Shown here piece by piece: positions 7,038 to 37,236 of a stretch of DNA of 64,000 nt; position 1 is the stretch's first letter; every line of letters starts with the position of its first letter. The stretch is from Escherichia coli (GTDB lineage Bacteria > Pseudomonadota > Gammaproteobacteria > Enterobacterales > Enterobacteriaceae). Both the position numbers and the translations under genes were made by a program. Below the pieces are notes generated by a model. It saw only the letters and a program-made list of their open reading frames with translations, had not been told where the DNA came from and did not search any database. Where the stretch lies: the NCBI RefSeq assembly GCF_013122565.1, contig NZ_CP053258.1; one strand, 5' to 3'.

Positions 7038-7964
7038 ATGATGCGTCGTGTAAATATTCTTTGCTCATTTGCTCTGCTTTTTGCCAGCCATACTAGCCTG
7101 GCGGTAACCTATCCATTACCTCCAGAGGGTAGCCGTTTAGTGGGGCAGTCGCTTACTGTAACTGTTCCTGATCACAATACCCAGCCGCTGGAGACTTTTG
7201 CCGCACAATACGGGCAAGGGTTAAGTAACATGCTTGAAGCGAACCCGGGCGCTGATGTTTTTTTGCCGAAGTCTGGCTCGCAACTCACCATTCCGCAGCA
7301 ACTGATTTTGCCCGCCACTGTTCGTAAAGGGATTGTGGTTAACGTCGCTGAGATGCGTCTTTATTACTACCCGCCAGACAGTAATACTGTGGAAGTCTTT
7401 CCTATTGGTATCGGCCAGGCTGGGCGAGAAACCCCGCGTAACTGGGTGACTACCGTTGAACGTAAACAAGAAGCACCAACCTGGACGCCAACGCCGAACA
7501 CTCGGCGCGAATATGCGAAACGAGGGGAGAGTTTGCCCGCATTTGTTCCTGCGGGGCCCGATAATCCCATGGGGCTGTACGCGATTTATATTGGCAGGTT
7601 GTATGCCATCCATGGTACCAATGCCAATTTTGGTATTGGACTTCGGGTAAGTCAGGGCTGTATTCGTCTGCGCAATGACGATATCAAGTATCTGTTTGAT
7701 AATGTTCCTGTAGGTACTCGTGTGCAAATTATCGACCAGCCAGTAAAATACACCACTGAACCAGATGGCTCGAACTGGCTGGAAGTTCATGAGCCGCTGT
7801 CGCGCAATCGTGCAGAATATGAGTCTGACCGAAAAGTGCCATTGCCTGTAACCCCATCTTTGCGGGCGTTTATCAACGGGCAAGAAGTTGATGTGAATCG
7901 CGCAAATGCTGCGTTGCAACGACGATCGGGAATGCCTGTGAATATCAACCGTAACGGATTTTGA
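7038..7964 (+). CDS. ldtA: L,D-transpeptidase (YkuD domain)
   Basis: 308 aa with signal peptide and catalytic-region motif [20 protein letters not shown]; synteny next to cobT as for erfK/ldtA. Confidence 0.9.
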
Positions 7965-8125
7965 CATTCAAAACGTCTGGTTTTTCGGTCTGAGTAAGCA
8001 TTACGTCATGCAGAACAGGTTGTTTCGAATCATACAAATCATAATTTTCTTCTCATATGCGCATCTCTTATGAGCATAATCGTTATACTCTTCTGATTTA
8101 TACATGTTTGCTGATGACATGATCA

Positions 8126-9103
8126 ATGGAAAAGAGAATGACGAAACAGAAAAAAAACAGCCGCTGGCAGGGTTACGATCCTCGCTACATATACTCGCTC
8201 GTGGTCAGACGTTATTTTGCGGATATGAAAACCAAGATTGAGATTGCAGAGGAGCTTGGCGTTTCCCGCTTTAAAGTTGCCAGATTGATCGATGAGGCGA
8301 TCGAACAGGATTACGTGAGGTTTATCTTCCCTAAGCAGCAAGCGATGGATGAAGAAATCGCCAATAATCTACGGAAAAAATTTCATCTGGAAGATGCAAT
8401 TGTTCTTTCAGTTGCTGAATCCTGGACGACGCAAGAAGAACTCAATCACAAATTGGGTGAAGTCACCGCTGAATATCTTATGCAATCTCTTCATGAAGGT
8501 ATGAAAGTGGGGATCGCCTGGGGACGTGTATTATCAAGCACGGTCAGTAAGTTGAGCAAGTTGCCTCCTTTAGACGTTGTGCAGTTATCTGGCGTACATC
8601 CGGGGATAGAGTTTAGTCAAGGGCCAATAGATCTTATTCATAAGATCGCTGCCATTTCGCAGGGAAAAGCGCACCCAATGTACGTGCCGATGTGGGTCGA
8701 TGACGAAGAGCTTGCTGCCAGACTGGCAGGTGATCCTGCGGTATTAGATACACAGCAATATTACTCACAGTTGGATGTGGTTATCACCGGGATAGGTGAC
8801 TGGAAATCAGGTTCTTCAAGCTTGTATAAAATATTTCCGGATACCTGGTGCGAAGCTTTGTTTCAACAAGATATCGCTGCGGATGTGTGTATCTCGTTGG
8901 TCAACAGGGAAGGGAAGATTCTTCATAGTCCTATTGAACGTCTGGGATTTGGCATTTCGACGGATCAACTACAAAAAGCCAAAAAAGTGATTGGTGTCGC
9001 TGGAGGAGAAGAAAAATATGAAGGCATTCTTGCTTCGCTGAAATCCGGACTTTTGAATGTCTTAATTACTGATTTTGATACGGCCATTAAACTTCTGGAT
9101 TAA
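8126..9103 (+). CDS. SorC/DeoR-family sugar-binding transcriptional regulator
   Basis: 325 aa; N-terminal HTH (IEIAEELGVSRFKVARLI) followed by a sugar-binding-like domain; true start may be 8138 (MTKQKK). Confidence 0.75.
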   Translation: MEKRMTKQKKNSRWQGYDPRYIYSLVVRRYFADMKTKIEIAEELGVSRFKVARLIDEAIEQDYVRFIFPKQQAMDEEIANNLRKKFHLEDAIVLSVAESWTTQEELNHKLGEVTAEYLMQSLHEGMKVGIAWGRVLSSTVSKLSKLPPLDVVQLSGVHPGIEFSQGPIDLIHKIAAISQGKAHPMYVPMWVDDEELAARLAGDPAVLDTQQYYSQLDVVITGIGDWKSGSSSLYKIFPDTWCEALFQQDIAADVCISLVNREGKILHSPIERLGFGISTDQLQKAKKVIGVAGGEEKYEGILASLKSGLLNVLITDFDTAIKLLD

Positions 9104-9154
9104 TAGCCATATCAGTGAAGAAAGGGCAGTACCGCTGATTCTGCCCTTTTAATT

Positions 9155-9613
9155 TCAGGATGCTGCGAGCGTATCCTCTACATATTTAGCCACGTGCGTT
9201 GCAGGTAAATTGCGGCAAGTCTCAACAAAGGCGTTATCCTGAAACAGTGTGAATAAACGACGCAATATCGACATATGTTGATCACTGGTGGCAAATGCCA
9301 GGTTAAACATAATGCTACAATCAACTGTTAAATCAGCATCTTCCATTTGCCCGAAAGTGACATCATTGGCGAAACGAACAATACTGATACTGTTTACATT
9401 TACCAGCGTGTAATCGGCATGGGGAATGGCGATACCCTGACCGTTTGCCATCATTAGTCCTGTCGGATAGCTTTTTTCACGTTCCAGGCAGGCGTCAATG
9501 TATTCTGCAGTGATGTAGCCTTTTTCCAATAATTGCGTACCGGCAAAGGTGATCGCAGTTTGATAGTCACTGATGCTGTTATCAACATCATTCACCAGAA
9601 TTTCAAGTTTCAT
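9155..9613 (-). CDS. PTS EIIA component (fructose/mannitol/galactitol type, EIIA-2)
   Basis: 152 aa with phospho-His region GQGIAIPHADY; last gene of a minus-strand PTS operon. Confidence 0.8.
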   Translation of the reverse strand: MKLEILVNDVDNSISDYQTAITFAGTQLLEKGYITAEYIDACLEREKSYPTGLMMANGQGIAIPHADYTLVNVNSISIVRFANDVTFGQMEDADLTVDCSIMFNLAFATSDQHMSILRRLFTLFQDNAFVETCRNLPATHVAKYVEDTLAAS

Positions 9614-9623
9614 TGCACACCTG

Positions 9624-9908
9624 TTATTTCAACATCTCTTCTTTAACTGCAGCGAAAATCTCATCTTCGCCCAGACCTGTCAGTAATCCAGCGCCAACGA
9701 TGACACGAGTAGTAATGGCCGGGTTATCGAGTTTGGTCGATGAAACCACCAGGTCATAGCTGTTGAAGGTATCGCTGGTGCATGCCATTAACGAAGATTT
9801 ATCGACTTGCGCTTCAATTTTCTCTTCTTTCAGGAAGTCCTGCAGTACAGAGACCATGATGGAAGATGAGGCAATTCCGTTTCCGCAAACTACTAAGATT
9901 TTTTTCAT
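9624..9908 (-). CDS. PTS EIIB component (galactitol/ascorbate-type)
   Basis: 94 aa, MKKILVVCGNGIASSS with the phospho-Cys motif. Confidence 0.8.
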   Translation of the reverse strand: MKKILVVCGNGIASSSIMVSVLQDFLKEEKIEAQVDKSSLMACTSDTFNSYDLVVSSTKLDNPAITTRVIVGAGLLTGLGEDEIFAAVKEEMLK

Positions 9909-9931
9909 TTGATTATTCCTCTGTAAAAGAT

Positions 9932-11302
9932 TTAAAGCGCTTTTTCCAAATCCGTTTCAATCTGGCGACGTGATTTTTGTTTAATTAAGTATCCAATAGA
10001 TAACAAAAGGATACCTGCCATCAAATAGCCAATGATTCCAACATGGCTCAGGGCGGCAAACAGACCAGTAAATGGATTCGCTGACGGGTTAAGTGAAGAG
10101 TACATTACGCTGGCATCCGGGTTTGTACCAAATTTCTGGAAGACTTCGTTGGTAGCCGGTGCCATCCACGACGCAATATACAGACCACCACCGAACAAAA
10201 TGATCGAGGTCACCCAGGTGCGAATAATGTTGCCATTAAAAACAGGTACCATGCAGGCAATAAAAAACACAAACTGAGAGAGGTCACCCAGTGGCATAAC
10301 GCGGTTGCCGGGCAAGATCACGGCGAGGATCACAATGACCGGGATCAGTAATAATGCAGGGGCGATAACTGATGGATGACCCACAATCAGAGCAGTGTCC
10401 ATACCAACAGTGATTTGACGATCCGGGAACCGTTTGACCAGTTTTTTGCGTGCTACGTTGGAAAGCGGAACAAGTCCTTCCATCATGATAGAGGTCATAC
10501 GTGGTAACAGAAGCATGACCGCAGCCAGATACATCCCTAACTGTAGGCTGGCGATTATGGTGTGGTATGGGGATTTCCAGCCATAACCACAAAAGCCCAA
10601 CAAAATACCAATAATAAAACCAACCATAGTTGGATCGCCGAGAATGCCAAACCGTTTTTGAATAGTTTCGGCGGTCACATTCAGATTACGGAAGCCTGGG
10701 ATGCGATCATAAATCCAGTTGAATGGATAAGCGAAAAGTAAGTAGGTATTGGCAACCGGGTGAGAGATCGCAACACCTTTTGGCAGGTTAAAGAATTTTT
10801 CGTTATTTTTAGCACCAAGATCGGCAGCGATCAGCGCCCAGACATGGAATAGCGCGGCGGTCAATGCGCCATACAGGAAACTACCAGAATAGACGCCAAC
10901 AATTGCCCCCATTGACGCATTTTGATGAAGGTTGAAAACATCAACGTTAACACAGTCAGTCAGGCGGGCGACCAGCATTGCAATATTTACCGCAACACAG
11001 AGGGGAATAATGATAGCGCCCATGCTGGAGCCAAATCCCATAACCGCAGTCGCTGCGCCACCAACATCGATGGCACTGAGCGAGGAACCTGTTGCTTCTG
11101 CTAATCCGGTGACTGCCGGTTGCATTTTTTCCAGCATCAGTTTGATGGTCATGGTTAGCGCAATGAAACCAATGCCTACTTTGATGGCAGACGAGATACA
11201 TTCAGAAAGAGGACGGCCAAGTATCTTCATCAGTACCAGGAAGATGACCGGGATAAATATAAAATTTCCCAGATCGTTTATAAATTGCGTGATCAGTTCC
11301 AT
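9932..11302 (-). CDS. PTS EIIC permease, galactitol (GatC) family
   Basis: 456-aa polytopic membrane protein between IIB and the isomerase gene. Confidence 0.8.
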   Translation of the reverse strand: MELITQFINDLGNFIFIPVIFLVLMKILGRPLSECISSAIKVGIGFIALTMTIKLMLEKMQPAVTGLAEATGSSLSAIDVGGAATAVMGFGSSMGAIIIPLCVAVNIAMLVARLTDCVNVDVFNLHQNASMGAIVGVYSGSFLYGALTAALFHVWALIAADLGAKNNEKFFNLPKGVAISHPVANTYLLFAYPFNWIYDRIPGFRNLNVTAETIQKRFGILGDPTMVGFIIGILLGFCGYGWKSPYHTIIASLQLGMYLAAVMLLLPRMTSIMMEGLVPLSNVARKKLVKRFPDRQITVGMDTALIVGHPSVIAPALLLIPVIVILAVILPGNRVMPLGDLSQFVFFIACMVPVFNGNIIRTWVTSIILFGGGLYIASWMAPATNEVFQKFGTNPDASVMYSSLNPSANPFTGLFAALSHVGIIGYLMAGILLLSIGYLIKQKSRRQIETDLEKAL

Positions 11303-11305
11303 ACA

Positions 11306-11842
11306 TTAACCCTCAGATTTTTCATCATCTGGTCGGAAACCCATATTCCAGCGTACATCAGCGGGCTTAACCAGCAATGCATTATCGTTACGTTCAGCTT
11401 CTAGTAAGTTCTTTTTAGAATTTTCTCTGGCGGTGGTGAAGTCGAATGGGTTATCCAACCATGCATCGACAATCATTTTGCTGTATTCGAGATCGTTGAC
11501 CCGGCAACCCAGTCCAATAACTTGTGCGTTATTGCTGAGTCGCGCCCGCTTTGCGGAGTAGGGGTTAGTAACCGCAACGGCTCTTATGCCCCAGTGTTTG
11601 TTGATCTGACAAGTAAAGCCAATGCCAGTCCCACAAATGTAAATTCCCAGACGGCACTCATCGCGTTGAATAATGCCTGCCATTTCGTCGGCCAGACGCG
11701 CGAAGTTATTGACACCTTGTTCCTTACATGTGACGGGATCGTACACGATCTCCATGTTTTTCTCTTCTATGAGGTATTTTTTTATCTCCTCTTTACGTGC
11801 AAAACCTACATCATCGCTTGCGATAGCAATCTTTGTTTTCAT
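11306..11842 (-). CDS. RpiB/LacA/LacB-family sugar-phosphate isomerase with C-terminal extension
   Basis: 178 aa, MKTKIAIASDDVGF...GIYICGTGIGF, typical of ribose-5-P isomerase B / allose-6-P / galactose-6-P isomerases; first gene of the operon. Confidence 0.75.
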   Translation of the reverse strand: MKTKIAIASDDVGFARKEEIKKYLIEEKNMEIVYDPVTCKEQGVNNFARLADEMAGIIQRDECRLGIYICGTGIGFTCQINKHWGIRAVAVTNPYSAKRARLSNNAQVIGLGCRVNDLEYSKMIVDAWLDNPFDFTTARENSKKNLLEAERNDNALLVKPADVRWNMGFRPDDEKSEG

Positions 11843-12190
11843 TTCATTTTGCCTGTCGTTAAGTAACTAAAGCCAAGTATGCTGTTGGTAAATATTGGTT
11901 GTCAATTGAGATCTAAATCACAAAATTTATAACTGATTGATTTTTAATGAATTAAAAACCAATAAAAACAAATAAAAAATAAATTAAGCCAATTAAAACA
12001 AAGTAGGCTTGCACAAGCACTTTGCAATTAATAATAAAAACACATTAAATATCAATCATATATATGAATTGCCAAACATTGTCTTTATTGGGCTTATTTG
12101 TACTTTCTACAGTTAGTGTTTGTTTTTGTTTGCATCATCTGTGCTATGCTTGGCGTTTTCTAAGATGGGCAATAGATTTCAGGAGGAAGG

Positions 12191-12946
12191 ATGTATCTGG
12201 TTGATGAAAGGCGAAAGTTAATACTTGAAGACTTAATGTCGGCAGGTACGGTCTATGTCAGTGATCTTGCACGAAAGTATGAAGTAACGTATGAGACCAT
12301 CAGGAAAGATTTGACCCATCTTGAACAAAAAGGGCTGCTGATCAAAAGCCATGGTGGGGCGACTTTAAAGCAAAGGGCCATAGAGCATCCCTTTCAGGTC
12401 AGGGAAAAAGAAAATAACTCTTATAAGAAGGCGATAGCTCGTAAAGCGCTTGATTTCATTCCGCCTAATAGTTCGATGATTATCGGTACGGGCAGTACCA
12501 CTTTTGAGCTGGCTAACCTGTTATGTATGAAGTCTGGGTTTAAAATCTTCACAGATTCGCTCCCCGTTGCCAGTGTGTTGATTGAATCTGACAATCAGGT
12601 TTTTCTCTTTGGCGGCGAACTGCGTAGAAAGAGTTCCTCAGTGTTTGGGGGGTGGGCGGTATCTATGATCAACGATATACATGTTGATCTCTGTTTCATT
12701 GGAACCGACGGCTTTAGTAACATGACTGGTCCATCGACGCCTTCTTCTTCTGATGCGTTTTTGGATCGCACGATAATTTCGCACTCAGACAAAAAATATA
12801 TCCTCGGTGATTACACCAAGTTTGAGCGCAGCAGTTTGTTTAAGATCTGCGACTGGTCGGAGATCACCGCCCTTATTACCAACGATCATGCCGACAAAGA
12901 GGGGATTGCCGAAGTCGCAAAATACACGTCAGTAATAACCTGTTAG
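12191..12946 (+). CDS. DeoR/GlpR-family transcriptional regulator
   Basis: 251 aa; N-terminal HTH (VYVSDLARKYEVTYETIRKDL) plus DeoR-type sugar-phosphate-binding C-domain; divergent from the first PTS operon. Confidence 0.8.
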   Translation: MYLVDERRKLILEDLMSAGTVYVSDLARKYEVTYETIRKDLTHLEQKGLLIKSHGGATLKQRAIEHPFQVREKENNSYKKAIARKALDFIPPNSSMIIGTGSTTFELANLLCMKSGFKIFTDSLPVASVLIESDNQVFLFGGELRRKSSSVFGGWAVSMINDIHVDLCFIGTDGFSNMTGPSTPSSSDAFLDRTIISHSDKKYILGDYTKFERSSLFKICDWSEITALITNDHADKEGIAEVAKYTSVITC

Positions 12947-13123
12947 AACTCCCTACAACACGCCTTCTCCCTTCGAATCAGCTTTGCCAAATGTAATCAT
13001 TTCCAAATTATCAAGTGAGCATCCATGGTGATGCTTGCTTAGCGCCCTTTATTGAATGCATCCTCTGCATATTGCCAGTTGCACCTCATTTTTTGCGAAG
13101 AAATCATTTTTTGAATCACGGTT

Positions 13124-13263
13124 TGCTCATATGAGCATAAATGCTGTCGCCATTATGTGCTTTTTTGTGATCTGGATTTAATTTCTCAGATCTCGTCATT
13201 TATCCACAGGATCGTTGTGCTATAACTGCTCATATGAATATTGTTCAATGCTCATGTGAGCAT
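13124..13263. promoter_or_regulatory. Candidate operator: palindromic tgctcatatgagca-type sites upstream of the second PTS operon
   Basis: Perfect 14-bp palindrome tgctcatatgagca at 13124-13137; related half-site tgctcatatgaa at 13227-13238 and near-palindrome tgctcatgtgagca at 13250-13263. Confidence 0.45.
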
Positions 13264-13284
13264 TGTGGGGTGAGGGGGAAGGAT

Positions 13285-13728
13285 ATGATATCGATCAGTG
13301 TTGCCGATGGTGCGGGACTACAGAACTACGATGCCGTGCTTGAACATATTTATAACACGCATCGTGAAACGAATACGGTGAAAGAGAGCTGGCTCAATGC
13401 TATGCGTAAACGCGAAGCGGAATATCCGACAGGAATAGAACTGGAAGGTTATTCTATCGCTATACCACACTGTGATAGTGAACATGCGAATCAACCGGCT
13501 ATTTATATCATCCGTCTGCCAGACGCAATACCTGTGAACAGGGCTGATGAAGATGGAATATTGTGGGTCAGACTCGTCGTTAATCTTATTGTTACGGATC
13601 CTGCTGACCAGCTTCGATTGTTAAAGTCATTATTTAACCATCTCCAAAATGAAGAATTTTACCAAAACTTACTGACACTTCCCGTCGATGATGCAAAAGC
13701 ACTTTTTGTGTCCAAAATAATCCAATAG
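13285..13728 (+). CDS. PTS EIIA component (EIIA-2 type)
   Basis: Phospho-His region YSIAIPHCD; start placed at the ATG at 13285 with a gggggaagga RBS; the track ORF starts at 13234 inside the palindromes. Confidence 0.75.
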   Translation: MISISVADGAGLQNYDAVLEHIYNTHRETNTVKESWLNAMRKREAEYPTGIELEGYSIAIPHCDSEHANQPAIYIIRLPDAIPVNRADEDGILWVRLVVNLIVTDPADQLRLLKSLFNHLQNEEFYQNLLTLPVDDAKALFVSKIIQ

Positions 13729-13746
13729 TAAAAACTGGAGTTTATT

Positions 13747-14040
13747 ATGATTAATATTCTTGTTGCTTGTGGTAGCGGTGTCGCTACATCTACGCTTGCT
13801 GCTGATGAAGTGAAGTCAGTATGTGCTGAATATGGTATTACGGCATTTAAAATCAACAAATGCAGTATGGCTGAACTTTCTTCTGAGATGGCTCATGCAG
13901 ATATTGTACTCACAACTAATAACTATAAAGGTGATATTGGGAAACCACATATGAGTGTTGCAGGTTTTGTAACGGGTATTAATGAAGGAGCATTACGCAA
14001 GAAATTAGGAGAGTTATTAACTGAATTAGCAAATAGCTAA
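13747..14040 (+). CDS. PTS EIIB component (galactitol-type)
   Basis: 97 aa, MINILVACGSGVATST phospho-Cys motif. Confidence 0.8.
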   Translation: MINILVACGSGVATSTLAADEVKSVCAEYGITAFKINKCSMAELSSEMAHADIVLTTNNYKGDIGKPHMSVAGFVTGINEGALRKKLGELLTELANS

Positions 14041-14060
14041 ACCTGACAGGAATAATAAAA

Positions 14061-15314
14061 ATGGAAATGTTGAAAAATTTAATGGAAACCATCACCGGAA
14101 TGGGGGCAACTGCAATACTGCCGCTGGTGATATTTATTTTAGGTCTGGTGTTCAGAATGAAACCAGGTGCCGCGATCAAGTCGGGCATCACAGTCGGTAT
14201 TGGTTTTATTGGTTTAGGTTTGGTTGTTGGTTTATTAAATAGTTCATTACAGCCAGCTATTGAGTATTACTCAAAAGTAGGTAGTGGTTTTACGGTTGCA
14301 GATATTGGTTGGCCAGCAGTCGGTGCTGCTGCATGGGTAGCACCTTTTGCCGCATTAGTGATACCAGTTGGCATCGTACTTAACCTGATACTGGTGCGCC
14401 TGAAATTAACCAAAACGTTAAATGTTGATATCTGGAACTATATGCATTTTTTAGTTCCGGGCGCTCTGGCATATTTTGTGTTCGACAGTTTTATCATCGG
14501 CTTCTCTGTCGCGGTGGCTTTGAGTATTGCGGCTCTGTTTATTGGCGATTTGATTGCGCCCAGATGGCAAAAATATTATGGACTCGAGGGAACAACCTGT
14601 ACCACGATGATTCATATCGGCTGGACTCTACCGTTCGCCTGGGTAGTAAATAAAATCATTGATTACATCCCAGGGTTAAATAAGTTAGATGTTGATTTAA
14701 ACAGCGTGCAAAAACGCCTGGGTGTCTTTGGTGAACCTGCAATTATCGGTGTTATCGTTGGCGCATTACTCGGAGTTTTAACGAAACAGGCAATTACCAC
14801 AATTGTTCCCATGGCGATGGGGGTTGCTGGCGTAATGGTATTATTGCCTAAAGTGGTCGGTGTGCTGATGGAAGGTCTTAACCCGATTGGGAAAAGTGCT
14901 AAAGAAATCATGCAAAAACAGATGGGTAAAGATGCAGAATTAAACATCGGTATGGATTGTGCACTGGCGTTGGGGGATCCGGCTACGGTCACCGTGACAG
15001 TAATTACCATTCCTTTAACCATGCTATGTGCTCTGGTATTACCTGATATTAAGATCTTCCCAATCGGCGTATTGATGTCAATTATTTATATGACCACCAT
15101 GACCGTAATGGCGAGCAACGGTAACGTGATTCGTTCGATTATCTCGACCTTGTTATTCTGCGTTGTAGTGATGTATTTAGGCGGTTATGTCGCACCAGGG
15201 GCAACGCAATTTTTAGCTGGAGCCGGTGTAGGCTTGCAAGGACAAGGTACTGATTTTGTATTAACCGGCCCGTGGGAAATTTTAACCTATTGGTTGAGTA
15301 CCGTATTACATTGA
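14061..15314 (+). CDS. PTS EIIC permease, galactitol (GatC) family
   Basis: 417-aa polytopic membrane protein following IIA and IIB. Confidence 0.8.
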   Translation: MEMLKNLMETITGMGATAILPLVIFILGLVFRMKPGAAIKSGITVGIGFIGLGLVVGLLNSSLQPAIEYYSKVGSGFTVADIGWPAVGAAAWVAPFAALVIPVGIVLNLILVRLKLTKTLNVDIWNYMHFLVPGALAYFVFDSFIIGFSVAVALSIAALFIGDLIAPRWQKYYGLEGTTCTTMIHIGWTLPFAWVVNKIIDYIPGLNKLDVDLNSVQKRLGVFGEPAIIGVIVGALLGVLTKQAITTIVPMAMGVAGVMVLLPKVVGVLMEGLNPIGKSAKEIMQKQMGKDAELNIGMDCALALGDPATVTVTVITIPLTMLCALVLPDIKIFPIGVLMSIIYMTTMTVMASNGNVIRSIISTLLFCVVVMYLGGYVAPGATQFLAGAGVGLQGQGTDFVLTGPWEILTYWLSTVLH

Positions 15315-15336
15315 TTTAATAATCTGGAGTTTTAAC

Positions 15337-15981
15337 ATGGCAAAAATATTACCTTCTATATTTGGCGCGGATATTTTACGCCTGAAAGATGAAATTCATT
15401 TTCTGGAAGAGGAACAAACCGAAATATTGCACGTTGATTTAATGGATGGCACTTATGTCAGTAATATTGCCTTTGGCCCAAATCAAATAGCAGCAATGAA
15501 AAAAGCCAGTTCGATGATCTTTGATGTGCACATGATGCTGGCAAATCCTGAGCGACATATTGATGATGTAATCAATACCGGGGCGGAGATGATTTCTGTA
15601 CATTATGAATCGACGCCACATGTACATTATATTATTCAAAAAATCAAAAAAGCGGGTCGCAAAGCAGGTGTTGTGCTTAATCCTGGGACACCTGAATCTG
15701 TCATCGAGTATTTATTAGATGATATTGATTATATATTGTTAATGACAATTAACCCAGGGCAACCAGGCCAGACATTTATTCATAAAAGTCTGGAGAAAAT
15801 CCGTAATACCAAAAAAATGATATCTGGCAGAGATATTCAAATTGAAGTGGATGGTGGCGTTAATCTTGATAATGTAAAACAAGTTAAAGAAGCAGGGGCT
15901 GACCTTATTGTTGTTGGTGGTGCCTTATTTAACAAACAGCCTCGTGAAAGTTATCAGGCATTGAAAATCGCTATTCAGTGA
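15337..15981 (+). CDS. Ribulose-phosphate 3-epimerase family protein (Rpe/AlsE-like ketose-phosphate 3-epimerase)
   Basis: 214 aa with the HVDLMDG signature and TIM-barrel epimerase layout. Confidence 0.8.
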   Translation: MAKILPSIFGADILRLKDEIHFLEEEQTEILHVDLMDGTYVSNIAFGPNQIAAMKKASSMIFDVHMMLANPERHIDDVINTGAEMISVHYESTPHVHYIIQKIKKAGRKAGVVLNPGTPESVIEYLLDDIDYILLMTINPGQPGQTFIHKSLEKIRNTKKMISGRDIQIEVDGGVNLDNVKQVKEAGADLIVVGGALFNKQPRESYQALKIAIQ

Positions 15982-16078
15982 TCACAATCTAAAAATTTCA
16001 CATCCAGTTAAGTGAGGTTTTCGATTTCATATCGGGAGGAAAACCTCAGCTAAAAAATGTCTTTAATGGAGAAAAGTA

Positions 16079-16831
16079 ATGAGTAATTTTGCAGGTAAAG
16101 TGGTTTTAGTTACCGGAGGTGCTCACGGTATTGGCAAAGGGATAGCTAAACAATTTGCTGATCGTGGTGCACATACTGTTATTGTTGACTATAACGAAGA
16201 GAACGGCAAGGCCACTGCAGCAGAGTTAACTTTTGGCGATGTTAAATCGCTGTTTGTTAAAACAGATGTCTCTGATCCACAGGCATTAGTGGATGTACGG
16301 GAAAAAGTATTTGCTACCTTTGGTCGTATTGATGTGTTGATATTAAATGCCGGTGTGGCATTTGCCAATAAAGTTAACAATATTTCTTTTGAGGAATGGA
16401 ATAAGACTATCGCAATTAATTTATCGGGATTATTTAATACCGTTAAGGCGTTTTATGATGATTTCCTGACAAATAAGGGATCTATTGTTTATATCTCATC
16501 GGGATCAGCACTTTCGGGGACTGGAGGCGGTGTGAGTTATCCAGCCAGTAAAGCGGGAGGCGAAGGGTTGATTCGCGGTCTGGCGAAGGAGTTAGGACCA
16601 AAAGGCGTCAATGTTAATGCGATTGCTCCCCGCTTAATAGACACCGGAGAGATGATGCGGGTCAACTATCCGACACAAGCCGATTTAGACGCTGTCCTGG
16701 AAAAAATACCCGTCCGTCGTCTGGGAACTATCGATGATGTGGCTAACCTGGCAATATTTTTGGCAGATAAAGATAACTCTTATATTCAGGGACAAACCAT
16801 TTTAATGGATGGTGGCCGGACTATTGCTTAA
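16079..16831 (+). CDS. Short-chain dehydrogenase/reductase (SDR) family oxidoreductase
   Basis: 250 aa with Rossmann motif TGGAHGIGKG and a YxxxK active-site region (YPASK). Confidence 0.8.
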   Translation: MSNFAGKVVLVTGGAHGIGKGIAKQFADRGAHTVIVDYNEENGKATAAELTFGDVKSLFVKTDVSDPQALVDVREKVFATFGRIDVLILNAGVAFANKVNNISFEEWNKTIAINLSGLFNTVKAFYDDFLTNKGSIVYISSGSALSGTGGGVSYPASKAGGEGLIRGLAKELGPKGVNVNAIAPRLIDTGEMMRVNYPTQADLDAVLEKIPVRRLGTIDDVANLAIFLADKDNSYIQGQTILMDGGRTIA

Positions 16832-16846
16832 AAAGGGAGAGAAAAA

Positions 16847-17407
16847 ATGAGTGTTCAGGAAAATACTATTAATATTCTGCATGAATTAGAGAGTAATGCG
16901 CTGAAGATTGACGATGCTCAGGCTTCACAGTTCATTTCGCAAATCAGAAATGCCCGGCATATTTTTTTGCAGGGAGCTGGTCGCAGTGGCATTGCTATTC
17001 GCGCTTTTGCTAATCGCTTGCTGCATTTAGGTTTTTCAGTAAGCGTTGTGGGAGAAATATCATCACCGCATACTCAACCTGGAGATCTATTAATTATTGG
17101 GTCAGGCAGTGGTGAAACTACCAGTTTGAAAAGTCTGGCACAAAAAGCAGTTGATAGCGGAGTAAACGTCGCTCTGGTAACTATGAAAGCTGATTCAACG
17201 ATCGGTAAATTAGCTCAATCTGTGTTGGTACTACCAGGAAGTGTGAAAGACGATAACAATCGTGTTGCAGGCGCTTTCGCGCAACCAATGGGCTCAGCTT
17301 TTGAGCAACTCTGCTTTATTACTTATGATGCAATTGTTCTGGAGTTGATGTCTGAACTGGGTGAAAGCAGTGCCACAATGTTTACCCGACACGCTGATCT
17401 GGAATGA
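16847..17407 (+). CDS. SIS-domain sugar-phosphate isomerase (6-phospho-3-hexuloisomerase-like)
   Basis: 186 aa; single SIS domain (FLQGAGRSGIA); size and layout resemble HxlB-type PHI. Confidence 0.7.
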   Translation: MSVQENTINILHELESNALKIDDAQASQFISQIRNARHIFLQGAGRSGIAIRAFANRLLHLGFSVSVVGEISSPHTQPGDLLIIGSGSGETTSLKSLAQKAVDSGVNVALVTMKADSTIGKLAQSVLVLPGSVKDDNNRVAGAFAQPMGSAFEQLCFITYDAIVLELMSELGESSATMFTRHADLE

Positions 17408-17431
17408 CTAAAAAGTTGGTAATTAGAAAGC

Positions 17432-17461
17432 AAAAAGCCTGCTAGAAAGCAGGCTTTTTTG
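17432..17461. terminator. Bidirectional rho-independent terminator between the island and asnV
   Basis: Hairpin agcctgc-tagaaa-gcaggct flanked by an A-run upstream and a T-run downstream. Confidence 0.6.
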
Positions 17462-17465
17462 AATT

Positions 17466-17541
17466 TGGCTCCTCTGACTGGACTCGAACCAGTGACATAC
17501 GGATTAACAGTCCGCCGTTCTACCGACTGAACTACAGAGGA
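17466..17541 (-). tRNA. asnV: tRNA-Asn (GUU)
   Basis: 76-nt reverse complement of the E. coli tRNA-Asn sequence; position between ldtA side and nac. Confidence 0.95.
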
Positions 17542-17795
17542 ATCGTGTGAACGGGGCGCATATTAATGGCAGTGCATGGTGATGTCAAAGGGTGAAATGC
17601 ATTTTTTTGTTTGTTTGCTGTCAATTTCAACAAAGTGATGAGATTTCAATCTTATTGGTTATGAACCATCGTGGTGCATACTCTCCTTTTATGGGGCAGG
17701 GGAACGCGATTGCTGATAAAAAGAACCAATGACGAATCTATCATAATCTCTTATTTGACAGTTGGTTAGCTTGTACATCAACGCCAAAATAAAAC

Positions 17796-17811
17796 TGGCA
17801 AGCATCTTGCA
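17796..17811 (+). promoter_or_regulatory. Sigma-54 (-24/-12) promoter of nac
   Basis: tggca-N6-ttgca about 55 nt upstream of the nac ATG; nac is known to be sigma-54/NtrC dependent. Confidence 0.6.
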
Positions 17812-17866
17812 ATCTGGTTGTAAGTAATGGCGGCACTTGGGCCGATTCTTAAAAACCGGAGGCAAC

Positions 17867-18784
17867 ATGAACTTCAGACGCCTGAAATACTTCGTAAAAA
17901 TTGTAGATATTGGTAGCCTGACGCAGGCTGCTGAAGTATTGCATATCGCACAACCAGCGCTCAGCCAGCAGGTTGCCACACTCGAAGGTGAGTTAAATCA
18001 ACAACTTTTGATTCGCACAAAACGGGGCGTTACGCCAACAGACGCCGGAAAAATTCTCTATACCCATGCGCGGGCCATTTTACGTCAGTGTGAGCAGGCC
18101 CAACTGGCGGTGCATAACGTTGGTCAGGCATTATCGGGGCAAGTCTCGATTGGCTTTGCGCCAGGAACCGCTGCGTCATCCATCACCATGCCCTTATTAC
18201 AGGCGGTTCGCGCTGAATTCCCGGAGATCGTTATCTATCTTCATGAAAATAGCGGTGCAGTGCTTAACGAAAAACTGATAAATCACCAACTCGATATGGC
18301 GGTAATTTATGAGCATTCCCCTGTGGCTGGGGTATCCAGTCAGGCTTTGCTGAAAGAAGATCTTTTCCTGGTAGGAACTCAAGATTGCCCGGGGCAAAGC
18401 GTCGATGTTAATGCTATTGCGCAAATGAACCTCTTTCTCCCCAGTGATTACAGTGCTGTTAGACTTCGTGTTGATGAGGCTTTTTCCCTACGGCGGCTCA
18501 CGGCAAAAGTCATTGGTGAAATTGAGTCTATTGCCACGCTTACCGCAGCGATTGCCAGCGGCATGGGCGTTGCAGTATTACCCGAATCGGCCGCGCGTTC
18601 GTTATGTGGCGCAGTAAATGGGTGGATGTCACGCATTACCACGCCTTCCATGAGTCTCTCTTTGTCATTAAATTTACCCGCCAGAGCGAACTTATCGCCA
18701 CAGGCACAGGCAGTGAAAGAGTTGTTAATGTCAGTGATTAGTTCCCCAGTGATGGAAAAAAGGCAGTGGCAATTGGTGAGCTAA
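17867..18784 (+). CDS. nac: Nitrogen assimilation control protein, LysR family
   Basis: Start trimmed to MNFRRLKYFVKIVDIGSLTQAAEVLHIAQPALSQQ. Confidence 0.95.
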   Translation: MNFRRLKYFVKIVDIGSLTQAAEVLHIAQPALSQQVATLEGELNQQLLIRTKRGVTPTDAGKILYTHARAILRQCEQAQLAVHNVGQALSGQVSIGFAPGTAASSITMPLLQAVRAEFPEIVIYLHENSGAVLNEKLINHQLDMAVIYEHSPVAGVSSQALLKEDLFLVGTQDCPGQSVDVNAIAQMNLFLPSDYSAVRLRVDEAFSLRRLTAKVIGEIESIATLTAAIASGMGVAVLPESAARSLCGAVNGWMSRITTPSMSLSLSLNLPARANLSPQAQAVKELLMSVISSPVMEKRQWQLVS

Positions 18785-18885
18785 GCGTTATATCGGGATG
18801 GAATAAGATGCGGGTTTTTATTATTTGTTATGCCGGGCATTAGACTTTAACAATAACGGGAAATCTGAACTGCCCGGAGTTTACC

Positions 18886-19836
18886 GTGAATTTCCAACAA
18901 CTAAAGATAATCCGCGAGGCTGCACGTCAGGATTACAACCTGACAGAGGTTGCGAATATGCTTTTTACCTCACAGTCAGGCGTCAGCCGTCATATTCGAG
19001 AACTGGAGGATGAACTTGGCATCGAAATATTTGTTCGACGAGGTAAGCGACTGCTGGGCATGACTGAACCGGGCAAAGCATTACTGGTCATTGCAGAACG
19101 TATTCTGAATGAAGCCAGTAATGTTCGTCGGCTTGCAGACCTGTTTACCAACGATACGTCTGGCGTTCTCACTATTGCAACGACGCATACTCAGGCACGT
19201 TATAGCCTGCCAGAGGTTATTAAAGCTTTTCGCGAACTTTTCCCGGAGGTTCGGCTCGAGCTAATCCAGGGGACGCCACAGGAAATTGCGACGTTGTTGC
19301 AAAATGGTGAAGCTGATATTGGTATCGCCAGCGAGCGTTTGAGTAATGACCCGCAGCTCGTCGCCTTCCCGTGGTTTCGTTGGCACCATAGTTTGCTTGT
19401 TCCACTCGATCATCCCTTGACGCAAATTACACCATTGACGCTGGAATCAATAGCGAAGTGGCCATTAATCACTTACCGACAGGGTATTACGGGGCGCTCA
19501 CGCATTGATGACGCATTTGCCCGCAAAGGTTTGCTGGCAGATATTGTATTAAGTGCGCAGGATTCTGATGTCATTAAAACCTATGTTGCTCTTGGGCTGG
19601 GGATCGGATTAGTTGCCGAACAATCCAGCGGTGAACAAGAGGAAAAGAATTTAATCCGCCTGGATACGCGGCATCTTTTCGATGCTAATACTGTCTGGTT
19701 GGGACTCAAGCGAGGACAACTTCAGCGTAACTATGTCTGGCGCTTTCTGGAACTTTGTAATGCAGGACTTTCAGTTGAGGATATCAAGCGGCAGGTGATG
19801 GAAAACAGTGAAGAGGAAATTGATTATCAGATATAG
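18886..19836 (+). CDS. cbl: CysB-like LysR-family regulator of sulfonate-sulfur utilisation
   Basis: 316 aa, MNFQQLKIIREAARQDYNLTEVANMLFTSQSGVSRHIRELEDELG. Confidence 0.95.
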   Translation: MNFQQLKIIREAARQDYNLTEVANMLFTSQSGVSRHIRELEDELGIEIFVRRGKRLLGMTEPGKALLVIAERILNEASNVRRLADLFTNDTSGVLTIATTHTQARYSLPEVIKAFRELFPEVRLELIQGTPQEIATLLQNGEADIGIASERLSNDPQLVAFPWFRWHHSLLVPLDHPLTQITPLTLESIAKWPLITYRQGITGRSRIDDAFARKGLLADIVLSAQDSDVIKTYVALGLGIGLVAEQSSGEQEEKNLIRLDTRHLFDANTVWLGLKRGQLQRNYVWRFLELCNAGLSVEDIKRQVMENSEEEIDYQI

Positions 19837-19837
19837 C

Positions 19838-19866
19838 AAAAAGCCCGCTATAAAAGCGGGCTTTTC
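19838..19866. terminator. Bidirectional rho-independent terminator between cbl and asnU
   Basis: Hairpin gcccgct-ataaaa-gcgggc followed by ttttc, preceded by aaaa. Confidence 0.6.
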
Positions 19867-19873
19867 AGAAATT

Positions 19874-19949
19874 TGGCTCCTCTGACTGGACTCGAACCAG
19901 TGACATACGGATTAACAGTCCGCCGTTCTACCGACTGAACTACAGAGGA
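19874..19949 (-). tRNA. asnU: tRNA-Asn (GUU)
   Basis: Identical 76-nt tRNA-Asn sequence (reverse complement). Confidence 0.95.
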
Positions 19950-20109
19950 ATCGCTGTTGAGGCACATCTTAACGGCGAAAAATCTTTTGTCAAACCCGAT
20001 TTTTAAATTTCCCAACTGTTTGCCGTTTCTATCAACAGTTTGTTGCATTTGCAGACAATTTGTTGGCGAAAATCTTTGCAGCTTTGCTGATTCTCCCTCA
20101 TTATTTGAA

Positions 20110-21697: not shown

Positions 21698-21773
21698 TCC
21701 TCTGTAGTTCAGTCGGTAGAACGGCGGACTGTTAATCCGTATGTCACTGGTTCGAGTCCAGTCAGAGGAGCCA
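21698..21773 (+). tRNA. asnW: tRNA-Asn (GUU)
   Basis: TCCTCTGTAGTTCAGTCGGTAGAACGGCGGACTGTTAATCCG...GAGCCA read directly on the plus strand. Confidence 0.95.
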
Positions 21774-21834
21774 AATTTTAGTTTTGAGACATCTCTATGA
21801 GTCTCAAGGCAGTTAAAAAATAAAAATTATTTTT

Positions 21835-21871
21835 ACCCGGTTAGCTTGTAAAAAAGTGACCGGGTTTTTTG
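21835..21871 (+). terminator. Rho-independent terminator downstream of asnW
   Basis: cccggt...gtgaccggg hairpin followed by tttttt. Confidence 0.55.
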
Positions 21872-22223
21872 ATTTCTGTGTTTCGTGCGCTTAATCGAGT
21901 CTCATGTTTCATTGAGCAAATTGCCCCCAACAGACATCACGATTCGCAAGTTCAAAAACTTCGTTCCGTGAAGTACCGTACAAAGATAAAGAAAAAATAC
22001 CTTACGCGGGATGTCGCTGTCGCGTCTTTATCGGGAAACTATACGTAATTGCCACTTTGTCTTCGGTAATCAGAAAAAGAAGACCTGCCATATTAATAAA
22101 TATTATTTCTCTGGGGACGGAGATTTTTTATAAGCAATATGACGAGTTAAACATTATATTTTTTATAAGGATTATATGAGATTAAAGAAATCTGCCATAA
22201 AAACAGATTTCTTTAAAATATAA

Positions 22224-22940
22224 TTAGAGATTTGCGACGTTATGATAAACTTTTTGTACATCGTCGTCATCTTCAAGGGCATCAACAAGCCCTTCAAAGA
22301 TTTCTAAATCTTCTGGGGAAAGCTCAACTTCTGATTGAGCAATCATTTCTAATTCTGTTGTTGAGAACTCAGTGATTCCAGCTGCTTTTAGAGCCGCGAT
22401 TCCTTTATGAAGGTCAGTAGGTTCAGTATAAATAACAATGTTACCTTCTTCTTCAGTCACATCACGAACATCAACTTCAGCTTCAAGTAAAATTTCAAAA
22501 ATATGGTCAGGGTCTGTTCCTTTAAATACAATCACACCCGTATTGTCAAACATATAGCTGACAGAACCTGCCGCTCCGATATTGCCGCCTTTTTTATTGA
22601 AAATTGTGCGAACGTTAGCAATCGTACGGTTAACATTTGAAGTCAATGTCTCGGCGATAATCATTGAGCCATTAGGACCAAAGCCTTCATAACGGCCCTG
22701 CACGAACGTTTCATCTCCGCCGCCTTTGGCTTTATCAATTGCTTTATCAATAACGTGTTTTGGAACTTGTGCCTGCTTTGCACGTTCAATAACGAATTTT
22801 AAAGATGTGTTTAATTCTGGATCGGGTTCACCTTGTTTAGCAGCAGCATAGATTTCTACACCGAATTTTGCATAAATTTTAGACGTTGCACCGTCTTTAG
22901 CCGTTTTTTTAGCAACAATATTGGCCCATTTACGTCCCAC
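22224..22940 (-). CDS. yeeN: YebC/PmpR-family probable transcriptional regulator
   Basis: 238 aa, [42 protein letters not shown]. Confidence 0.9.
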
Positions 22941-23282
22941 TGGAATGATCTCCTCGAAAATTTATTTACATTACTGGTAAATCGTTAACATGTGTTAATT
23001 CGGCATATTATATCATAACAGGAAAAATCTCGTCTATTAGAAATAAAAATATTCTAAAGTCATAATCTTATATTTAATTTTATAAAAACTTATAATGTTG
23101 GTGGGGTTTTTTATAATTGTGTTTTGAAAGCATACTTGCTTTTAATATGTGGAAATCATTAAGACGATAATAAAACTCGTATCCGCCCAAGGAAGCAAAC
23201 AGCCCGCGTTTATTGCGGGCTATTTGCCAGATGTCTTACTTAATCCTTCACATCTATTTTTGATAAGAAGGTTCAGAACTTA

Positions 23283-35766: not shown

Positions 35767-36079
35767 GCTTACCTTCCCTGAACGAGCTAACATAAATGCG
35801 CCCTTTCTAGCACAGCGAAAAAATGTAAATCCTGATAGCAATATGATTGAAAATTAATAACTTTTCGTTAGGCAGTTTTGGGTGTGAGTTGCAAGAGGGG
35901 AGACTACTGAATTACTCAAGTTTTATAATCGAGGGGAAAATGGTGATGGCGTCCATAGCAAAACGCCCTCAACCATTAAGGTCGAAGGCGCTTAAGATGT
36001 CAAAAACCCGCTATCCGTTAAAAAGCAATGCTCAACTAAGGTCAGTGACATTGCGCTAAAAAAGCGAATTTTTAGAATT

Positions 36080-36155
36080 TGGCTCCTCTGACTGGACTCG
36101 AACCAGTGACATACGGATTAACAGTCCGCCGTTCTACCGACTGAACTACAGAGGA
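36080..36155 (-). tRNA. asnT: tRNA-Asn (GUU)
   Basis: Identical 76-nt tRNA-Asn (reverse complement); upstream flank atcgtgtgaacggggcgcatatta is identical to that of asnV. Confidence 0.95.
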
Positions 36156-37146: not shown

Positions 37147-37236
37147 GGAGAGATGCCGGAGCGGCTGAACGGACCGGTCTCGAAAACCGGAGTAGGGGCA
37201 ACTCTACCGGGGGTTCAAATCCCCCTCTCTCCGCCA
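37147..37236 (+). tRNA. serU: tRNA-Ser (CGA)
   Basis: GGAGAGATGCCGGAGCGGCTGAACGGACCGGTCTCGAAAACCGG...TTCAAATCCCCCTCTCTCCGCCA read directly; 90 nt with a long variable arm. Confidence 0.9.

Follow-up and report, generated by a model that had tools for sequence, protein, structure and literature searches.

Hairpins with symmetric A/T flanks as probable terminators of the asnV and asnU tRNA genes of Escherichia coli, with possible activity in the convergent direction

The window, which is the whole 64 kb stretch of DNA analyzed here, is the asnT-asnW-asnU-asnV region of E. coli. The names asnV and asnU rest on synteny with K-12 (nac, cbl, ldtA, and cobUST). Each of these two tRNA genes faces a protein-coding gene tail to tail, and a hairpin lies between the convergent units in both cases (Table 1). 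The hxlB-like gene (+), the final gene of an accessory PTS/sugar islet, converges on asnV (-), and 24 nt separate its stop codon from the A-run of hairpin 1 (29 nt from the GC stem). Similarly, cbl (+) converges on asnU (-), and its stop codon, TAG at 19834-19836, lies 1 nt ahead of the A-run of hairpin 2. Because the TAG ends so close to this A-run, hairpin 2 is the sole 3' UTR of cbl. Additionally, the -35 and -10 elements of the promoter-like site of asnV are kept in an alignment of the four tRNA-Asn paralogs.

Table 1. Positions of the features discussed, in window coordinates
Feature	Position	Strand	Evidence
asnV, tRNA-Asn(GTT)	17466..17541	-	ARAGORN; Rfam tRNA, 72.6 bits; K-12 synteny (asnV between nac and ldtA)
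asnU, tRNA-Asn(GTT)	19874..19949	-	ARAGORN; Rfam; K-12 synteny (asnU beside cbl 3' end)
asnV promoter-like site, TTGACA-17-TAATAT	17560..17588	-	Consensus scan, 10/12 matches
asnU promoter-like site, TTGACA-16-TAAGAT	19966..19993	-	Consensus scan; paralog alignment
hxlB-like gene (6-phospho-3-hexuloisomerase)	16847..17407	+	ORF list; RefSeq annotation of a 98.4%-identical genome
cbl	18886..19836	+	ORF list, annotation, sequence
Hairpin 1, asnV intrinsic terminator with symmetric flanks	17432..17461	both strands	Sequence, folding
Hairpin 2, asnU intrinsic terminator	19838..19866	both strands	Sequence, folding
A/U-rich trailer, CCA end to hairpin 1 (AAUUC including 17461)	17462..17465	-	Paralogs, family, Term-seq
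Accessory sugar-PTS islet, ~9.4 kb, between ldtA 3' end and hairpin 1	7943..17414 (left limit approximate)		Genome comparison, K-12 alignment, annotation
Third copy of the terminator family, ancestral asnW terminator, orphaned	23201..23221	+	Pattern search, Escherichia alignment

Hairpin 1 consists of an A-run (17432-17436), the arm GCCTGCT (17437-17443), the loop AGAA (17444-17447), the arm AGCAGGC (17448-17454), and a T-run (17455-17460). Similarly, hairpin 2 comprises an A-run (19838-19842), the arms GCCCGCT (19843-19849) and AGCGGGC (19855-19861) around the loop ATAAA (19850-19854), and a T-run (19862-19865). Both possess perfect GC-rich 7-bp cores with 5-6 G-C pairs each. On the tRNA strand, the A/T-extended stem of hairpin 1 starts 5 nt past the CCA end of asnV, after the spacer AATTC, and hairpin 2 starts 8 nt past the CCA end of asnU. 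The earlier note had placed the hairpins about 5-8 nt from the tRNA 3' ends, each between an A-run and a T-run, and had called for terminator prediction on both strands. The distances agree with this description, and the flanks lie exactly at the positions of Table 1. As for the prediction, when the 64 kb was scanned for hairpins that have a perfect GC-rich stem and whose T-tail scores (TransTermHP type) reach at least 4 on each of the two strands, exactly these two hairpins passed.

Upon folding, both hairpins give stems of 11-12 bp on either strand, with MFE values of -17.8 to -21.7 kcal/mol and z-scores of -2.0, -3.1, -3.35, and -3.96 against dinucleotide shuffles. As hairpins, they score -11.3 and -11.7 on a TransTermHP-type scale; the cut-offs of that program are -2 for the hairpin and -2.5 for the tail (PMC1852404). 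Tail scores were referred to random 15-mers (mean 2.15, 99th percentile 4.03). On the tRNA strand, the U-rich tracts right after the stems, UUUUUGCUUUCU and UUUUUGCUAUAU, score 5.06 for hairpin 1 and 4.86 for hairpin 2. On the + strand, the competence of hairpin 1 is good (UUUUUUGAAUUU, tail 5.22), and that of hairpin 2, with the short U-tract UUUUC, is moderate or marginal (UUUUCAGAAAUUU, tail 4.13). Hairpins of this bidirectional grade appeared in 0 of 30 simulated windows (Markov-1). A plain consensus terminator scan overlooked hairpin 2 and reported hairpin 1 solely on the - strand, since it counted the A:T pairs as stem and so lost the T-tail. In a search of Rfam at a permissive threshold, only the tRNAs passed; sub-threshold matches to leader and attenuator families were rejected as mere generic terminator shape.

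That the hairpins can terminate the tRNAs, as had been proposed from the sequence, is borne out by published data, and the RNA 3'-end and reporter evidence comes entirely from K-12. In K-12, Term-seq 3' ends are located at asnV+37 and asnU+38/+41, within the U-tracts and in the tRNA direction (PMC7815308 supplementary file 1). The end at 2062372(+) maps to window position ~17429 at hairpin 1, and those at 2059964 and 2059967(+) map to ~19836 and ~19833 at hairpin 2. Moreover, the asnV intrinsic terminator, T3PE-605, was as effective in a reporter as rrnB T1, for which read-through is 0.009 (PMC9023263). Hairpin 1 is base-for-base identical to this K-12 terminator, without any difference. Both hairpins combine a stable GC-rich stem-loop, a U-tract 3' of the stem, a position at the 3' end of a transcription unit, and compensatory stem changes, all features of an intrinsic terminator. 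They also resemble the terminators of monocistronic E. coli tRNA genes (asnV T3PE-605; leuW, leuX, and pheU/V), in which a GC stem-loop and UUUUUGCU follow a few nucleotides after CCA. The hairpins are already characterized and are the normal stop signals of E. coli asnV and asnU. Taken as a whole, the interpretation that asnV and asnU are single-gene tRNA units and that the hairpins are their native Rho-independent terminators is very probably correct, and reverse activity is the part of it that we infer.

In K-12, with the same or nearly the same sequence, each tRNA has been shown to be transcribed from its own promoter, and RNA polymerase to stop in the UUUUUGCU tract past the 7-bp GC-rich stem, which A:U pairs lengthen to 11-12 bp. 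In the proposed mechanism, the terminator stub would be cut off in the A/U-rich trailer of 5-8 nt, and the end would then be trimmed to CCA. AAUU follows CCA in four of four tRNA-Asn paralogs, and an A/U-rich spacer is found in most of 120 tRNA-Asn genes. From what is known of tRNA processing in E. coli, we take the A/U-rich trailer of asnV to be the entry site of an endonuclease (RNase E). Two published observations concern these ends: an abundant Term-seq end lies at CCA+2 (PMC7815308), and polyadenylated asnV precursor ends have been detected (PMC5389530).

The window and K-12 alleles of hairpin 2 differ at 2 positions, and at one of these the K-12 base disrupts the outermost G-C pair (G.A mismatch). 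Based on the sequence, the asnU terminator of the window, with its perfect stem, is predicted to be tighter than the mismatched K-12 version. A strong Rho-termination region (score 35.9) lies 140 nt past the K-12 asnU terminator, antisense to cbl, and the downstream reads there number 25 without BCM versus 1209 with BCM (PMC7815308). From this signal, the mismatched K-12 allele (G.A) seems to leak in the tRNA direction.

Within E. coli, a 60-nt query covering hairpin 1 has a match in 5258 of 5426 genomes, and the corresponding query for hairpin 2 has a match in 4690 of them. Furthermore, a hairpin of this family stands behind ~100 of 120 tRNA-Asn genes (80 Enterobacteriaceae loci); the asnV-type loci were recognized by where they lie with respect to cbl (about -2366 nt). 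From CCA to the GC core the distance is 9-12 nt (98 tRNA-Asn genes), and the A:U extension starts ~5 nt sooner. In the stem alignment, where four core columns are fixed by the regex anchoring the arms, 99.4% of the cells hold a pair, and in 5 of 11 pairs both sides have changed (G-C/A-U/U-A; C-G/U-A/U-G). None of 500 shuffles scored as high, and slid controls were 35-61% paired. Between asnV and asnU themselves, the stems show a compensatory change from U-A to C-G. A search of the 64 kb with the family pattern gave 3 matches versus 0.04 expected, the third being the orphaned copy. In an alignment with other Escherichia lineages, the hairpin comes right after asnW, and amn comes next; a yeeN-containing insertion has moved the orphan copy 1.4 kb from asnW.

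On the asnV side, the hxlB-asnV junction is spanned in 142 of the 5426 E. coli genomes, and the others match from window position 17415 on. The junction at 17414/17415 lies 17 nt outside hairpin 1 and 51 nt past the CCA end. In K-12, which is without the islet, hairpin 1 and the 17 nt upstream are 100% identical and stand between ldtA and asnV. By this comparison, hairpin 1 is core DNA and predates the islet. The islet inserted 17 nt beyond hairpin 1 and took over a terminator once shared with ldtA. Hairpin 1 had been described as insulating the accessory island from the tRNA; of this description, the island is real, as the 142 genomes attest, but the K-12 identity makes the hairpin older than the island.

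Regarding the convergent direction, the A's 5' of the stem would make the opposite strand read as a hairpin and a U-tract as well, and the element would therefore be sequence-competent to stop convergent transcription. Hairpin 1 could stop the hxlB operon of the islet, or ldtA in K-12, and hairpin 2 could stop cbl. Termination of convergent hxlB and cbl by the hairpins is plausible, with hairpin 1 (6 U) the likelier candidate for reverse activity and hairpin 2 (4 U, then C) the less likely one. Supplementary file 1 of PMC7815308 (three conditions) lists no 3' end at these sites on the strand of cbl or ldtA; as both genes are probably poorly expressed in those conditions, this is weak evidence. 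Likewise, the 3' ends of cbl, ldtA, and erfK that were sought in the supplement of PMC9262186 gave no match. At tRNA-Asn loci, the reverse tail score is 4.19 with a convergent ORF (n=61) versus 4.10 without (n=36; p=0.45). As the reverse tails do not differ between the two groups, the A/T symmetry gives no ground for assuming selection for two-way termination. The A-run is a fixed part of the tRNA-Asn terminator family and is not tailored to the neighboring genes.

These data bear on a narrower reading, in which the hairpins stop tRNA transcripts only and the A-run serves for stem lengthening or as an A/U-rich processing site. In that case, cbl, hxlB, and ldtA would be ended otherwise, by Rho, by collision with polymerases from the very active tRNA promoter, or by antisense read-through and decay. 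The equal quality of the A-run with and without a convergent ORF fits such a role. Moreover, the purines of the A-run are always pair-compatible with the U-tract (A-U, G-U, G-C; 96-100% paired), as an extended stem predicts, and the forward T-tail is near-invariant (5.03 +/- 0.32), whereas the reverse tail scores lower and varies more (4.1-4.2 +/- 0.5). The absence of reverse-strand 3' ends from the PMC7815308 Term-seq table points the same way, and collision-driven termination of convergent genes is documented in E. coli (bioRxiv 10.1101/2022.10.23.513370). However, even the reverse tails score above the 99th percentile of random 15-mers, and the reverse tract of hairpin 1 holds six consecutive U's. 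Additionally, the cbl stop codon abuts hairpin 2 and thus leaves no room for another terminator ahead of the antisense tRNA, and the orphaned copy beside amn kept its stem long after the loss of its tRNA. On balance, we regard an exclusively one-way role as possible but unlikely.

Far less probable is an origin of hairpin 1 within the island, as a mark of integration into the tRNA gene. Its location at the island/tRNA boundary, the standing of tRNA-Asn genes as classic integration sites, and the island-type junctions found right after CCA at 18 of 120 tRNA-Asn genes would all agree with such an origin. Against it, the hairpin occurs in 5258 genomes and the island junction in 142 only, and the identity with island-free K-12 extends through the hairpin and the 17 nt upstream. 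An island-borne terminator or att-site remnant is ruled out by this identity together with the genome counts. Moreover, the islet carries no annotated integrase, and the tRNA 3' end is not repeated inside it, only the four tRNA genes matching; the attachment-site features of a tRNA-integrated island (a start inside or at the tRNA 3' end, a direct repeat of that end, and an integrase) are absent at asnV. Least credible of all is the proposal that the hairpins are chance palindromes or dispersed REP-like repeats without a role in transcription. Intergenic DNA often contains short A/T-flanked palindromes, and the Rfam matches were sub-threshold only. However, the simulated windows contained none, the stems covary across genera, the GC core keeps its fixed position after CCA, and the 64 kb holds only 3 copies, each tied to tRNA-Asn history. 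The mapped RNA 3' ends and the measured termination in K-12 refute this proposal.

The preferred reading, native tRNA terminators with possible reverse activity, can be set beside known systems. A/T-flanked hairpins between tail-to-tail genes are textbook bidirectional terminators (PMC1852404). Like those of TransTermHP (PMC1852404), the present hairpins lie between convergent units, carry an A-run 5' and a T-run 3', and have tails that pass the cut-off on both strands, hairpin 2 being marginal. Unlike them, one partner here is a tRNA rather than an mRNA, the symmetry is present even without a convergent gene, and two-way activity would be a prediction from sequence. Collision-dependent bidirectional terminators encode RNA unlike that of intrinsic terminators (Ju et al. 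2019, as summarized in bioRxiv 10.1101/2022.10.23.513370). The convergent layout and the stem-loop between gene ends are shared with that class as described there, and heavy tRNA transcription would favor head-on collisions; in contrast, the asnV and asnU hairpins are canonical, with U-tracts, and thus fall outside it.

Beyond correct annotation, the finding is of little importance; the E. coli terminators are already known, and one has been measured as a very strong part. A symmetric A/T flank alone is no proof of two-way termination. The hairpins are core DNA and mark the end of the asnV-side islet, and the alleles of the asnU terminator differ, with a perfect stem in the window strain and a mismatch in K-12. 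A further reading, which we offer only tentatively and consider doubtful, is that trailer and hairpin form a conserved module co-duplicating with tRNA-Asn. Its two-fold symmetry would be inherent, given that stem extension or processing requires the A-run, and each locus would be pre-equipped as a two-way insulator. If this is true, insertions that enter at the 3' end of the tRNA (HPI/ICE-type islands, or at asnW the yeeN segment) would strip the tRNA of its module and orphan it at the far end, and insertions beyond the hairpin (the PTS islet at asnV) would inherit a ready-made terminator. On this view, the landing site of the DNA with respect to the hairpin would determine whether transcription from a strong tRNA promoter enters the new segment.

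Based on a megablast search of 5426 complete E. coli genomes and the K-12 annotation, the window corresponds to the asnT-asnW-asnU-asnV region of E. coli, oriented opposite to K-12, with the gene order cobUST, ldtA, accessory islet, asnV, nac, cbl, asnU, yeeO, asnW, yeeN, amn and shiA. The same data confirm the names asnV and asnU, as given in an earlier note. The two hairpins also lie where that note placed them, starting 5 nt (hairpin 1, asnV) and 8 nt (hairpin 2, asnU) past the CCA ends on the tRNA strand. Rfam finds tRNAs alone in the window.

Features of the asn region in the window
Feature	Coordinates	Strand	Description
tRNA-Asn(GTT)	17466-17541	-	one of five window tRNA genes
tRNA-Asn(GTT)	19874-19949	-	one of five window tRNA genes
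tRNA-Asn(GTT)	21698-21773	+	one of five window tRNA genes
tRNA-Asn(GTT)	36080-36155	-	one of five window tRNA genes
tRNA-Ser	37147-37236		one of five window tRNA genes
Hairpin 1	17432-17460		AAAAA-GCCTGCT-AGAA-AGCAGGC-TTTTTT
Hairpin 2	19838-19865		AAAAA-GCCCGCT-ATAAA-AGCGGGC-TTTT
Islet	~7943 to 17414		~9.4 kb, between ldtA and asnV terminator
Last islet operon	13234-17407	+	has taken over hairpin 1

Both hairpins fold on both strands into stems of 11-12 bp. The folding energies lie between -17.8 and -21.7 kcal/mol, and relative to dinucleotide shuffles the z-scores run from -2.0 to -4.0. By the TransTermHP formula for tails and its parameters for hairpins, the two hairpins score -11.3 and -11.7; hairpin 1 has tail scores of 5.06 (tRNA strand) and 5.22 (+ strand), and hairpin 2 has 4.86 and 4.13. 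The TransTermHP cut-offs are -2 (hairpin) and -2.5 (tail) (PMC1852404); for random 15-mers matched to the window in composition, the tail score averages 2.15 and its 99th percentile is 4.03. No other perfect GC-rich hairpin in the 64 kb has a tail score of 4 or more on each strand, and the same scan of 30 Markov-1 simulated windows found none. The paired A/T-flanked hairpins are real, far beyond chance; both belong to the canonical intrinsic-terminator class, and hairpin 1 is a specific, already known E. coli terminator that has been measured previously. Upstream of nac, the palindrome of TGGCAAGCATCTTGCA at 17796-17812 was flagged as 'terminator-like' on the - strand, probably a false positive; we take this sequence to fit the sigma-54 promoter pattern TGGCA-N7-TTGCA.

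Termination in the tRNA direction is borne out by K-12 Term-seq 3' ends and an asnV reporter. The 'primary' ends are 2059964 and 2059967(+) for asnU and 2062372(+) for asnV (PMC7815308, supplementary file 1), that is, CCA+38, +41 and +37, inside UUUUUGCU. By homology, they correspond to window ~19836 and ~19833 (asnU) and ~17429 (asnV), and the asnU transcript therefore terminates inside the cbl stop codon. In the reporter, the asnV intrinsic terminator T3PE-605 was as effective as rrnB T1, whose own read-through fraction is 0.009 (PMC9023263). Additionally, poly(A) has been detected on asnV precursor ends (PMC5389530), and the four asn genes, treated jointly, show 3' trimming that depends on RNase T/PH, and their leaders are 6-8 nt long (PMC3378859, PMC7049720). 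One Term-seq end, at CCA+2, is very abundant and was assigned to asnW (PMC7815308), but all four asn genes share the sequence at this point. This end fits an endonucleolytic cut in the AAUU trailer, presumably by RNase E, followed by trimming.

Within E. coli, a 60-nt query over hairpin 1 matches 5258 of 5426 genomes, and one over hairpin 2 matches 4690, with at least 99% identity to the window in 4021 of the latter. K-12 matches hairpin 1 and its preceding 17 nt at 100% identity; in K-12 this stretch separates the ldtA stop from asnV. Compared with K-12 (window 19843 and 19869; ~3931-3955 of L001, the K-12 locus in our comparison set), hairpin 2 carries two differences, one of which affects the outermost core pair: this is G-C in the window and in other Escherichia, and a G.A mismatch in K-12 (GCCCGC/GCGGGA). 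A strong Rho-termination region at 2060104(+) lies 140 nt beyond the K-12 asnU terminator, antisense to cbl, with 25 downstream reads without BCM and 1209 with BCM (score 35.9; PMC7815308). The K-12 asnU terminator may thus leak in the tRNA direction. The window strain lacks the K-12 stem mismatch.

Alignment together with the tRNA genes shows that hairpins 1 and 2 are paralogous and that a compensatory change (U-A to C-G) separates their stems. We gathered 80 Enterobacteriaceae loci with Cbl (Escherichia, Citrobacter, Enterobacter, Klebsiella, Kosakonia, Kluyvera, Leclercia and others) and took the sequence 3' of each tRNA-Asn gene. The family AAAAGCC[Y]GC-loop-GC[R]GGCTTTTTGCTTT is present at ~100 of 120 genes, its GC core beginning 9-12 nt past CCA. 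Pairing holds in 99.4% of cells, with both-side changes in 5 of 11 pairs (28 distinct arm combinations); the pair types are G-C/A-U/U-A, C-G/U-A/U-G and, in the flank, A-U/G-U/G-C. The observed covariation values were reached by 0 of 500 shuffles, and sliding the partner gave 35-61% pairing, where four core columns are fixed by the arm-anchoring regex and within-genome paralogs are not independent. In Kosakonia oryziphila (L056) and a soil MAG (L036), some tRNA-Asn genes carry a wholly different stem, GGGAAGCAGACGTTC…GACGTCTGCTTTCT, with position and flanks as in the family; here the terminator is replaced, not diverged.

The other tRNA-Asn flanks vary. asnW lacks the family terminator and has AATTTTAGTTTTGAGACATCTCTATGAGTCTCAAGG straight after CCA, a junction type that recurs 3' of tRNA-Asn in other genera (L007, L019, L065, L075). 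Its ancestral terminator lies 1.4 kb off at 23201-23221, adjoining the amn 3' end, with decayed A/T flanks and a degenerate tRNA 3'-end repeat ahead (23177-23198). In L003, L004 and L007, the hairpin comes immediately after asnW and amn comes next, without yeeN; so yeeN appears to belong to DNA inserted long ago at the 3' end of asnW (window 21774-23221). Of the family hairpin, the asnT flank (36010-36079, - strand) retains just the left half in degenerate form, AAAAATTCGCTTTTTTAGCG, with a 4-bp stem, and then a different hairpin, GCAATG…CATTGCTTTTT; this flank folds no better than shuffles (z -0.22). A second island-type junction, AATTCTTGTTTTCAKGC…TTCAATAAGTTAGCG, also recurs: in many genera it takes the place of the terminator 3' of the nac-proximal tRNA-Asn, directly after CCA at the asnV-type position (L005, L014, L017, L022, L032, L036; also L041, L054, L062, L070, L071, L081). 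No hairpin of any kind lies within 48 nt of these genes, and the junction presumably marks integrated HPI/ICE-type elements.

The islet, of sugar-PTS/pentose-type metabolism, holds two PTS IIA/IIB/IIC sets, SorC- and DeoR-type regulators, an RpiB/LacAB-type isomerase, rpe, an SDR oxidoreductase and hxlB, with no integrase annotated within it. Among the 5426 genomes, just 142 carry the hxlB-asnV junction; in all the rest, the alignment starts at window 17415. The islet replaces the final ~35 bp of K-12-type ldtA plus 4 nt, altering the LdtA C-terminus (…GMPVQISSGSRQMF* in K-12). Because other Escherichia lineages show the K-12 arrangement, the islet is the derived state. In the window, the hairpin scan finds no hairpin between ldtA and the next gene. 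Hairpin 1 does stand between islet and asnV, as the earlier note held in describing it as insulating the island from the tRNA. It is, however, the older terminator once shared by asnV and ldtA, identical in K-12.

In the reverse direction, the + strand tails of both hairpins pass the usual thresholds, with six U's in hairpin 1. An A/T-flanked hairpin between tail-to-tail genes is a recognised bidirectional-terminator signature (PMC1852404), and because the cbl stop abuts its A-run, hairpin 2 is the sole possible terminator ahead of the antisense tRNA. In anatomy, the hairpins resemble bidirectional intrinsic terminators, a class defined by two-strand 3' ends; the K-12 Term-seq tables contain no cbl- or ldtA-strand ends at either site (PMC7815308), which low expression likely explains. 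A collision-type bidirectional terminator was rejected, as that class is by definition unlike intrinsic terminators. Across tRNA-Asn loci, the forward tail is almost invariant (5.03 +/- 0.32), and the reverse tail scores 4.19 (n=61) where a convergent ORF lies no more than 120 nt away and 4.10 (n=36) where none does (Mann-Whitney p=0.45). The A-run purines are 96-100% pair-compatible with the U-tract, which fits a role as stem extension. Judged from sequence, two-way termination is likely, more so at hairpin 1 than at hairpin 2. Since the A-run is equally good with or without a convergent ORF and pair-compatible, we take the symmetry to be inherent in the tRNA-Asn terminator.
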